Shown one piece after another: positions 9,135 to 11,706 of a stretch of 42,842 bases of DNA. The notes beneath the pieces are model-generated. The model was given only the letters and a program-made list of their open reading frames with translations. It did no database searches and had not been told where the DNA came from. This DNA comes from a virus, in UHGV virus genome UHGV-0138423; one strand, written 5' to 3'. A program made the position numbers and the translations under genes. Position 1 is the stretch's first letter, and the number at the start of each line of letters is the position of its first letter.

Positions 9135-9721
9135 TAGCCGCCCCCCAGTAATGACGCCACGTTACCCGTGATGCTTTTCAGCAGTGAAGTATCTGGAGGT
9201 TTTGTGGTTTTGTTGCCGCTGTTCTGTACCGCCGACGTGCTGGCCCCTTCCTTCATGTTGGTTTTATCCGCGACGGTAATCTGCTGTGTCCGGGAGATAA
9301 TGACCTCCCTCAGGGTGAGGACGGCGGACAGGACGTTTTCGGTTGTCTTGTCCGTCGTCACTTCCAGCGCCCGGATCAACATGTTGCTGTACAGCCGTTT
9401 ACCGGTTACCACATCGAAGGGGATACGGCTTTCCTGCAGATCCAGTAGCTCCTGATACGTCTGCTGAGGACTCAGGCCGAGCAGGCTGGTAGCCGTCAGG
9501 TTACTGGCAAAATCCAGCAATGCGCCGCCACCGGCGAAACCAACCTCCATCACCACTTCTGACGGTTTTTTATAGGCATGATCAGCGACAGCGGCCCCGA
9601 CCTCTACCGGATGCTCTGTTATTTCAAGCATATCTGTATGCTTCTCTGAAATAACAACACTGGGAACAATCATTCCTATTTTTCTGCTCTGCTGATGAAA
9701 AAGTGTAGAGAGAATATCCAC
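9134..9721 (-). CDS. Tail protein downstream of the tape measure gene
   Basis: 195 aa ORF abutting the tape measure stop; position equals PBSX XkdP / Mu gp43-type proteins. Confidence 0.4.
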   Translation of the reverse strand: MDILSTLFHQQSRKIGMIVPSVVISEKHTDMLEITEHPVEVGAAVADHAYKKPSEVVMEVGFAGGGALLDFASNLTATSLLGLSPQQTYQELLDLQESRIPFDVVTGKRLYSNMLIRALEVTTDKTTENVLSAVLTLREVIISRTQQITVADKTNMKEGASTSAVQNSGNKTTKPPDTSLLKSITGNVASLLGGG

Positions 9722-11706
9722 TAACCCACCCTCACCTGATTACTTCGCATGACCTGAGCATTTGCAGACTGTTGCCGACGTGCAACCTCATTACCGACAG
9801 CGTGCGGATCTCCGCCACCGTAAATATGGTAGGTATTTTGCTGGTTAACCTCTGTCACTTTGCCACTAATTCCCGCCACGGCAGCCTTATTAATCAGCTC
9901 TCGAGAATAGATATTTCTTCCATTCTCATGCTGGATAATGCTGCTCATCAATGCTGACATGGTTTGCGGATCGCTCATATTCAGGGCAGCCCGGGGATCC
10001 ACTCCCAGTCGTTGCGATACAGCCCTGATATACGCGGTTGTGTTGTTATTATCAGACGCAGGTGCCCAGGTAGAGATAATTTTCTCCACACTGTTTATTC
10101 CCCGTCCGGCGTACAGCATTAACTGACGAGCAAGAGCCCGTAATCCATCAAAAGCGGTTTCAAATCTGGCAAATCGCCCGCCCGGTCGTTCAAGAGAAGC
10201 CCCCGCCTGACCAGCAAAATTAAGGTTTCCCGGATTGTTATTCCGTTCTCCTCGCTTCGTAGCCTGTGCATGTTGTTCCGGCTCAGCACCTGGAATATCT
10301 GACTGAATATTTGCGCCTTTTACGGTATGAGGATTACGACCAAAATCGGTATCAATGCCAAGCCAGCGCAATGAATCTCCAATATTTTGTTTCGTGTAAT
10401 CCCAGGATGACTTCGCACTGGCACCAATATTTTCGCGATCGGAGTACAAATAAGCAGCATAAGCCATCCAGCCTTTTAACCATGGCGGTACCGGCAAACC
10501 AGATATTTTCCCGAAAGCCCCCAGAACCCTGGATACCCAGACACCCGCGATGAATGTACCGAGGATTTCCAGTGCATTTTGCCAGCCGCCAACACCATCT
10601 TTTAGTTCCAGAAGGTGATCACGAAGCCAGGTGATCGCATCCTTCGCTTTATCTATTGCCGGTTGCCATTTTTCCCAGTCGATAAGACTGTTACCGCCTT
10701 CTTTCCATGTTTTGTAGTCTTCCCACAAGAGACCGAGAGCCACGATCAGACCGGTAATCAGCCCTATAGGTGACATCCAGAAAGTAGAGTTAAGTATCCG
10801 CATGGCGACAACCAGACCGCCGATAACCTCTATCAGGGTTTTCGTTTCGGCATCCAGTTTCCCCCACCACTCGATGATATCTCCGACACCATCGACTATC
10901 CGAAATGCTACCCGCCCGACTATCTCACCCAGCCAGAGGATCCCCTTTATGACCTTTGTGATGGTGACTTCAATTTTGGGAAAATTTTCAATTATCTTTT
11001 TGCGCAGGTTATCAATCTGCCCCGCCAGTCCGTCCGCAAGATTCGATCCGATTTTGTCCCGCGCCATCCCGGCCATTTCACCGAGCGATTTCAGCGAGGT
11101 CATAAACCGGTTTGACGATAAGGCAGCCTGATCGGCATTAAATCCGATCGCTTTCACCATTTCTGAATACTGAGCGCTGAACTGCCCCACTCCGCGACGC
11201 ATAGCCATCAGGGTATTTTCGTCAATGCCCAGCATCTGCGCATACTGGTTAGCCCGGTAATACGGCATGCTGCTGAGTTTCTGCCCAACGCCCGTAAAGA
11301 TAGCAGCCATGTCACGCATGTTACCGCGGGCATCACGGGTCTGTACGCCCAGGCGATTCAGAAAGCCTTCTGCTCCGGGATTGTTACGAATAAACCGGGA
11401 GAGGCTTTCCAGAGAAGATCGCGCAGCGTCCACACTGCCGCCAACCTGCGAAACCGCATAGCCAATAGACTGAATTCCCTGGACCGTCGCGCCGGTGCGC
11501 TGTGACGCCCAGTAAAGATTATCCAGGCCGGAGGCGATCTTAGCCGTGAAGGCCACCACGGACAGCGCAGCTCCTTCAACAGCCAGCCCCATTTTGATGA
11601 CATTTGCAGTTGTACCGGCGAGGACAGAACCGAACTTTTTCGCTCCTGCATCATCCACACTGAAGCCAAGCGAGACGAGGAAATCTTTAATAGTTTCAGC
11701 GTTCAT
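9721..11706 (-). CDS. Tail tape measure protein with an extra C-terminal globular domain
   Basis: 661 aa from the ATG (MNAETIKDF...) preceded by GGAGAGAGG; Ala/Gly-rich helical N-terminal part and hydrophobic central segments typical of tape measure proteins; C-terminal region contains an NNNPGNL motif. Confidence 0.75.
   Translation of the reverse strand: [661 protein letters not shown]

Follow-up and report, generated by a model that had tools for sequence, protein, structure and literature searches.

The element described here is the C-terminal part of the tape measure protein (TMP) encoded by UHGV-0138423, a virus genome of 42,842 nucleotides; this entire stretch of DNA is called the window throughout. 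A first-pass annotation had singled out positions 9721-10300 (minus strand), which comprise the last 192 codons of the TMP gene and its stop codon, as coding for an extra globular domain at the C terminus. The mechanically called open reading frame (ORF) at 9721..11727 (minus strand) starts with TTG and would give a protein of 668 amino acids (aa). The true start is most likely the ATG at 11706 rather than the TTG at 11727, because a Shine-Dalgarno sequence, GGAGAGAGGA, lies upstream of that ATG and the same start is annotated in Escherichia phage vB_EcoM-606R2 (ON470579; 606R2 below), whose TMP is 99.4% identical at the protein level.

The family phrog_2276, 'tail length tape measure protein', spans the full length of the product (E=3.4e-265), and phrog_12506, an N-terminal-only TMP family, matches it as well (E=1.8e-98). 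Two further models align with residues ~58-169 below their thresholds, Pfam PhageMin_Tail with 21.1 bits (curated cut-off, 33.2) and TIGR01760 with 18.9 (cut-off, 28.8). The gene sits between a tail assembly chaperone gene with a probable -1 frameshift site and the tube-initiator and hub genes, downstream of the sheath and tube genes. A strongly hydrophobic stretch is found around residues 308-330. The gene, the regions of its product, and the residues discussed below are as follows.

9721..11706, minus strand: TMP coding sequence, 661 aa from the ATG at 11706
10672..11706, minus strand: conserved N-terminal half, residues 1-345, common to TMPs with a different lysin cassette
10261..10671, minus strand: variable middle or linker, residues 346-482
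9862..10260, minus strand: very probable Enc34-type (PHA02564) lysozyme-like muralytic domain, residues 483-615
9724..9861, minus strand: C-terminal tail, residues 616-661 (46 aa), with a modelled helix at residues ~634-660
10225..10245, minus strand: RNNNPGN signature motif, residues 488-494
10066..10068, minus strand: Trp547, aligned with Enc34 Trp79 (substrate-positioning aromatic)
10030..10032, minus strand: Tyr559, aligned with Enc34 Tyr95
9925..9927, minus strand: Glu594 within 'IIQHENG', aligned with Enc34 Glu131 (proposed catalytic residue)

Predicted fold and family of the C-terminal domain

An AlphaFold2 model of the 192-aa C-terminal piece of the TMP, built on an alignment of 76 homologues, reached a mean pLDDT of 89.6 and a pTM of 0.76. 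It comprises a compact all-helical domain at residues ~483-615, followed by a lower-confidence linker and a C-terminal helix (residues 165-191 of the piece). The modelled domain has about six helices arranged like the alpha-lobe of lysozyme, and no beta-lobe. When the domain model was compared with the PDB by Foldseek, the sole significant match was 7Q47 (E=5.5e-8), the endolysin catalytic domain of Hafnia phage Enc34. A phmmer search of the PDB also returned 7Q47 (E=8.8e-14, over residues 14-128 of the piece), the best PDB sequence match being chain L of 9VVP, 'Gp29' (E=1.2e-20).

The peptide strings quoted in the first-pass annotation all occur in the TMP translation, and its view that the region is folded and unlike TMP helix agrees with the compact model. 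A disordered or coiled-coil C terminus is ruled out by the AlphaFold2 confidence, and no homology to a non-enzymatic TMP segment was found. The placement of the domain near the C-terminal end stands; its placement at the extreme C terminus does not, since the 46-aa tail comes after it.

Residues 483-615 thus very probably form a peptidoglycan glycosidase of the Enc34/M4Lys type (CDD PHA02564), serving as a virion-associated lysin and not as a lysis enzyme. The sequence, the predicted fold, and the catalytic-site residues of the domain all agreed with membership in the Enc34/PHA02564 family, and the family match supports the earlier suggestion of a probable peptidoglycan-degrading function. The Enc34 paper (PMC8943055) assigns the Enc34 domain to PHA02564, reports that E. 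coli, P. aeruginosa, and H. alvei with permeabilised outer membranes are lysed by it, and describes its fold as all-helical, a permuted relative of the lysozyme alpha-lobe in which the catalytic helix is permuted with respect to GH23. Glu131, Trp79, and Tyr95 are named there as catalytic-site residues common to GH73 and GH23 enzymes (residue numbers in that paper equal the GenBank numbers minus 1).

Scans of the C-terminal piece against Pfam-A and NCBIfam gave no match, and Pfam gave none either for Enc34 ORF39, CR44b gp16, the SPN1S structural protein, or JBD5 gp24. The silence of these libraries is a gap in their coverage and not evidence of novelty. The first-pass annotation could not assign the domain to a hydrolase family because Pfam and NCBIfam have no model for it, even for Enc34 itself; that statement is outdated rather than wrong, as the Enc34/M4Lys type, characterised in 2020-2022, fits the domain. 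The Pfam SLT family (PF01464), which has its catalytic Glu-Ser motif in an N-terminal helix, gave no match at E<=1 to either the full TMP or the C-terminal piece, and the same search detected SLT at E~1e-24 in the orthologous TMPs that carry it.

The bond cut is most likely GlcNAc-beta-1,4-MurNAc (GlcNAc, N-acetylglucosamine; MurNAc, N-acetylmuramic acid). The TMP domain would accordingly be read as an N-acetylglucosaminidase because this activity has been reported for M4Lys and argued for Enc34. The muropeptide products of M4Lys indicated N-acetylglucosaminidase activity, possibly accompanied by endopeptidase activity (PMC7143992). The present data establish the ORF, the fold prediction, the family to which the domain belongs, the conserved catalytic-site residues, the exchange with SLT, and the lysis cassette elsewhere in the window; we infer that this particular domain is enzymatically active, which bond it cuts, where in the virion it sits, and how the steps of entry follow one another.

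Several points weigh against this assignment. We found no measured activity for the TMP or for any TMP-borne copy of the domain, and activity in the family is demonstrated only for Enc34 ORF39deltaC and M4LysdeltaTMD (PMC8943055, PMC7143992). The catalytic role of Enc34 Glu131 derives from structural superposition, the accessible text describing no mutant (PMC8943055). The bond specificity of the family is unsettled, the M4Lys data having suggested glucosaminidase as well as endopeptidase activity and PGAP calling the TMP a lytic transglycosylase. The presumed position of the domain in the virion relies on analogy with Mu only, and three to six folded domains of ~15 kDa would fit tightly in the tail tube's lumen; the domain may be stored partly unfolded or in a cavity of the hub. 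In the literature we found no paper describing an Enc34-type domain in a TMP, PMC13025223 merely citing the Enc34 paper, and no paper on 9VVP.

Conservation of the signature motif and catalytic residues

Conservation was determined in two samples, the 76-sequence homologue alignment and 79 cluster representatives with the TMP-type architecture, the latter showing just 19-52% identity to the top match. All seven residues of RNNNPGN were invariant in 76 of 76 aligned homologues, and six of them in the 79 TMP-type representatives, in which the first Asn was at least 90% conserved. The same motif occurs in Enc34 ORF39, JBD5 gp24, and the SPN1S protein, and CR44b gp16 has RNSNPGN. Glu594 and Tyr559 were each invariant in both samples (76/76 homologues and 79/79 TMP-type representatives). 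The column of Trp547 in the homologue alignment was always aromatic (W in 59 sequences, Y in 16, and F in 1).

Exchange of the Enc34-type and SLT cassettes in orthologous TMPs

A tblastn search with the whole TMP returned two classes of relatives, those matching over the full length and those matching over the first ~370 residues only. The full-length class, which carries the Enc34-type domain, includes Citrobacter phage Omnitron, Klebsiella phages GZ7 and Mulock, SEN34, and YP3, while the N-terminal-only class shows ~67-70% identity over the first ~370 residues. Three SLT-bearing TMPs of the N-terminal-only class were examined: those of Klebsiella phage ST340-VIM1phi10.1 (667 aa), Hafnia phage yong1 (662 aa), and Elizabethkingia phage EKP1 (760 aa). 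The Pfam SLT domain (PF01464, E~1e-24) lies at residues ~500-600 in the first two and at ~600-693 in EKP1.

A four-way alignment of the TMPs showed 53-84% identity per segment over residues 1-345 and at most 29% after that. The variable middle (residues 346-470) was 10-29% identical to the SLT-bearing orthologues, identity recovered in part, to 38-56%, in the junction at residues 471-486 ('EPEQHAQ..KR'), and the 46-aa tail was 58% identical to that of yong1 and only 25-28% identical to those of the other two TMPs compared. When the 120 best homologues of the N-terminal half were sorted by cassette, NNxPGN was present in 71 and the SLT motif together with PF01464 in 9, the rest being truncated or unclassified; this set is composed mostly of contig-end fragments, and the 71:9 count is not a population frequency. 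The SLT-bearing TMPs share their neighbourhood with the TMP studied here (sheath DUF3383, tube, chaperone, TMP, and a Dit-like protein) and have their lysin cassette at the same relative position, but that cassette is a GH23 lytic transglycosylase with no detectable sequence similarity to the Enc34-type domain. The domain is hence not an extra peculiar to this TMP, as it had first been described, but one of two alternative cassettes found at that position in the TMP family.

We regard the cassette swap as the strongest contextual argument for peptidoglycan cleavage during entry: two unrelated glycan-cleaving domains occupy one slot of the TMP family and would therefore have an equivalent wall-cutting role at entry. 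It is unlikely, in our judgment, that this recurrent exchange, which has a parallel at the N terminus of the gp16 ejectosome protein in Autographiviridae, is adaptive and not a neutral shuffling of modules, with the two cassettes cutting different bonds and the Enc34-type one permitting entry despite murein modifications (e.g., MurNAc O-acetylation) or periplasmic lysozyme or transglycosylase inhibitors that block SLT lysins. If that were true, the Enc34-type cassette would be a determinant of host range or of the physiological state in which a host can be entered.

The shared slot also bears on whether the domain could itself be a lytic transglycosylase, cutting the MurNAc-beta-1,4-GlcNAc bond with formation of 1,6-anhydroMurNAc, which would leave its role at entry the same and change its chemistry. 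Besides the slot, this reading has on its side the PGAP and nr names 'lytic transglycosylase (catalytic)', the single conserved acidic catalytic residue, as in GH23, and the presence of the GH23 enzymes phiKZ gp144 and MltC among the distant structural relatives of Enc34 listed in PMC8943055. We nevertheless consider it improbable, given the lack of any Pfam SLT match at E<=1, a helix order permuted with respect to GH23, and M4Lys digestion products that indicated loss of GlcNAc; the PGAP name, moreover, has probably spread through the N-terminal half that this TMP has in common with true SLT-bearing TMPs.

Less probable still is an inactive structural or peptidoglycan-binding module that would serve as a plug at the tail tip or, after ejection, as an anchor of the TMP in the wall, and would make no cut there. 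The absence of measured activity for TMP-borne copies speaks for it, as does the fact that the Enc34 authors could not obtain crystals with bound sugar (PMC8943055). An inactivated domain would, however, not be expected to keep its Glu and Tyr invariant and its aromatic residue conserved through 76 homologues and 79 TMP-type representatives, and the alternative cassette at this position belongs to a bona fide enzyme family.

Distribution, naming, and the lysis genes

By tblastn, the domain was found in 753 of 50,697 phage records, Enc34 and BSPM4 included. An exhaustive phmmer search retrieved 9957 clusters (defined at 50% identity) at E<=1e-3 and 3788 at E<=1e-10. Of the best 144 new cluster representatives, 79 have the domain near the C terminus of a long protein; all 79 match phrog_2276 and 64 of them match phrog_12506. 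The DNA of the domain is present in 265 of 5426 complete E. coli genomes (~5%), always on the chromosome. A TMP with an Enc34-type domain is therefore a common architecture that is poorly named: PGAP calls the TMP 'lytic transglycosylase catalytic', 'lytic transglycosylase', or 'hypothetical protein' in E. coli RefSeq genomes, and GenBank phage records label it 'hypothetical protein'. The presence of Enc34-type domains in TMPs is already contained in PHROG 2276 and in many database entries.

Outside TMPs, the domain was met in four contexts: as an endolysin that is encoded in a lysis cassette and bears a membrane anchor at its C terminus (Enc34, BSPM4, and other Chi-like phages), as a free-standing 138-aa endolysin of D3112-like Pseudomonas phages (JBD5 gp24), as an internal module of the 937-aa 'minor structural protein' of podovirus SPN1S, and as the module at the N terminus of the gp16-type internal virion protein of Kayfunavirus, which has 1295 aa (CR44b gp16). 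The BFVD matches to the domain include 'Virion protein' and 'Internal virion protein D'.

Many of the closest free-standing homologues are single-domain proteins of ~135-140 aa from metagenomes and bacterial genomes; some, in Dyella, Xenorhabdus, and Desulfovibrio, carry the label 'structural protein P5' or 'structural protein'. In Vibrio phage fNo16 (10.6 kb) the features that contain the domain are labelled 'protein inside capsid D' and 'hypothetical protein'. Small phages, perhaps without tails, may also have the domain in their virions.

The window holds lysis genes of its own.

23711..24187, minus strand: lambda R-like endolysin, 158 aa, phrog_90 (E=1.9e-63)
24191..24550: holin, PF05106 (E=3.3e-27)
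23335..23727: Rz-like gene

The TMP domain was rejected as the endolysin of this phage on account of this separate lambda-type S/R/Rz cassette. Even an auxiliary endolysin, contributing to host lysis at the end of infection and not to entry, is hardly credible: although the same family supplies the sole endolysin of Chivirus/Enc34-type phages and of D3112-like phages (JBD5 gp24 lies in a lysis cassette), the domain is here embedded in a 661-aa structural protein, with the ruler region before it and a conserved tail after it, we found around it neither an internal start nor a lysis-gene context of its own, and a complete holin/endolysin/spanin cassette lies elsewhere in the phage. The lambda R-like endolysin, too, had no Pfam-A match at E<=0.01, which makes it a second muralytic enzyme in the window missed by Pfam.

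The tail module and other loci in the window

The genes surrounding the TMP gene in the tail module are listed below.

12791..13936, minus strand: sheath, DUF3383
12340..12780, minus strand: tube, KPP10_Orf10
11884..12336, minus strand: tail assembly chaperone, PF21822 Phage_TAC_15 (E=7e-31)
9134..9721, minus strand: Dit-like tube initiator, PF21821 (E=6.7e-34), immediately downstream of the TMP gene
8832..9134, minus strand: Pam3_gp18 plug
7759..8829, minus strand: baseplate hub, 356 aa, phrog_196 (E=1.4e-89)
6215..6967, minus strand: spike

Judged by these sequence matches, the module is a Mu-like minimal contractile myophage tail of the Pam3/E217/KPP10 type. The phage is temperate, and the window also encodes an integrase and RecE/RecT. 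Three segments of the window were queried, and each had 100% identity with a prophage carried by E. coli strain C25.

A slippery sequence, T_TTT_TTG, is present in the chaperone gene at 11929..11935 (minus strand), and the -1 frame runs on for ~78 codons up to a stop at 11696, 10 nt within the TMP gene. A programmed -1 frameshift extension of the chaperone running to 11696 is therefore probable. In relatives, this extension is annotated as a separate small ORF, 'NTP pyrophosphohydrolase' (MK422455) or 'DUF6889 family protein' (PGAP), which looks like a misannotation. At the position of the hub gene, 606R2 carries two shorter annotated coding sequences of ~140 and ~213 aa (4045..5109 in ON470579), which points to a frameshift, an error in sequencing, or a genuine split.

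Between the hub and spike genes lie two small ORFs (7034..7399 and 7412..7759, minus strand) whose products have signal-peptide-like N termini, MKRLALLSLVFMSYSVLAAP... and MKRWIFSLLALVSVGVSANT..., respectively. One of them matches phrog_3443 (unknown function), and neither matches Pfam. A terminator-like GC hairpin follows at ~6986..7009. In 606R2 this segment is replaced by other sequence despite the 99% identical TMP, and only 5 of 5426 E. coli genomes contain all 841 bp of it; the segment resembles a moron cassette within the baseplate operon. On the plus strand, 36773..40923 encodes a 1028-aa RecE-like exonuclease (an Exonuc_VIII N-terminal domain and a PDDEXK-like C-terminal domain) and RecT; this stretch has a lower GC content (0.39-0.51) and adjoins the integrase gene (41716..42792).

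A possible role at entry

In Mu, the last 17 residues of the TMP, gp42, assemble into a trimer that is lodged between hub and spike, and contraction drives the TMP out (PMC11915804); in Pam3 the TMP stands on the baseplate within the tube (PMC9942802). By analogy, the TMP described here would fill the tail tube's lumen in a Pam3/Mu-like contractile tail. Its C-terminal tail of ~46 residues, which we infer to be a hub/spike-docking segment, would be held at the centre of the baseplate, and the lysin domain would lie just above the tip. Contraction of the sheath would release the spike and the hub, and the C-terminal end of the TMP would be the first part expelled into the periplasm. There the domain would make local cuts in glycan strands, Glu594 acting as the catalytic acid and Trp547 and Tyr559 positioning the substrate, and the murein mesh would be opened for the tube and the TMP to reach the inner membrane. 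Hydrophobic segments of the TMP (around residues 285-330 and 375-400) may help to form a conduit for the DNA.

Significance and comparison with known systems

What is gained here is mostly annotation: a domain that lacks a Pfam or NCBIfam model is present in thousands of protein clusters and, among complete E. coli genomes, in ~5%, and the current understanding of how phages cross the cell wall is unchanged. A defensible name for it is Enc34-type glycosidase, probably an N-acetylglucosaminidase, with E594 as a testable catalytic residue. As a free domain (~130 aa, soluble in its Enc34 form), it is a candidate enzybiotic module. The swap between SLT and the Enc34-type domain in orthologous TMPs also offers a natural experiment on the interchangeability of entry lysins with different bond specificities.

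The closest characterised relatives, Enc34 ORF39 and M4Lys of BSPM4, belong to the same PHA02564 domain family as the TMP domain. The Enc34-type endolysins differ in possessing a C-terminal membrane anchor, whereas the TMP domain has no anchor, lies near the TMP's C terminus, and belongs to a phage with another endolysin. Insertions of Enc34 (e.g., 'FDKRKAADGS' and 'PEDYDRAPYNNIN') are absent from the TMP domain.

Among the lysins carried by other TMPs, that of T5 Pb2 is a metallopeptidase, that of TM4 an Rpf-like motif, and that of phiIPLA35 a muramidase. Mutants of T7 gp16 and of the TM4 TMP in the lysin motif reportedly show defects with stationary-phase cells and at low temperature. Their place in TMPs is established (T5 Pb2 and the phiIPLA35 TMP, PMC6116005; motif 3 of the TMP of mycobacteriophage TM4, PMC1796659). 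They resemble the present case in having a peptidoglycan-cleaving module inside the TMP that assists genome entry, but they represent other enzyme families in siphovirus tails, and no homology of the catalytic modules is implied.

The gp16-type ejectosome protein of Kayfunavirus carries a domain of the same family and is itself a virion protein, ejected into the cell envelope upon infection. In contrast to the TMP, it is an internal core protein of a podovirus, 1295 aa long, whose extreme N terminus holds the domain, and it is no tail ruler. In a tblastn search, the fragment of 9VVP Gp29 that aligned showed 99% identity to a Kayfunavirus 'DNA ejectosome component', and a solved structure therefore already shows the domain on an ejected virion protein. 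In gp16 of T7, the N-terminal region holds a lytic transglycosylase motif. Through such a motif T7 gp16 has peptidoglycan-degrading activity, as reviewed in PMC6116005. The contrast between this motif of T7 gp16 and the Enc34-type domain of Kayfunavirus gp16 is parallel to the swap of SLT and Enc34-type domains in the TMPs.

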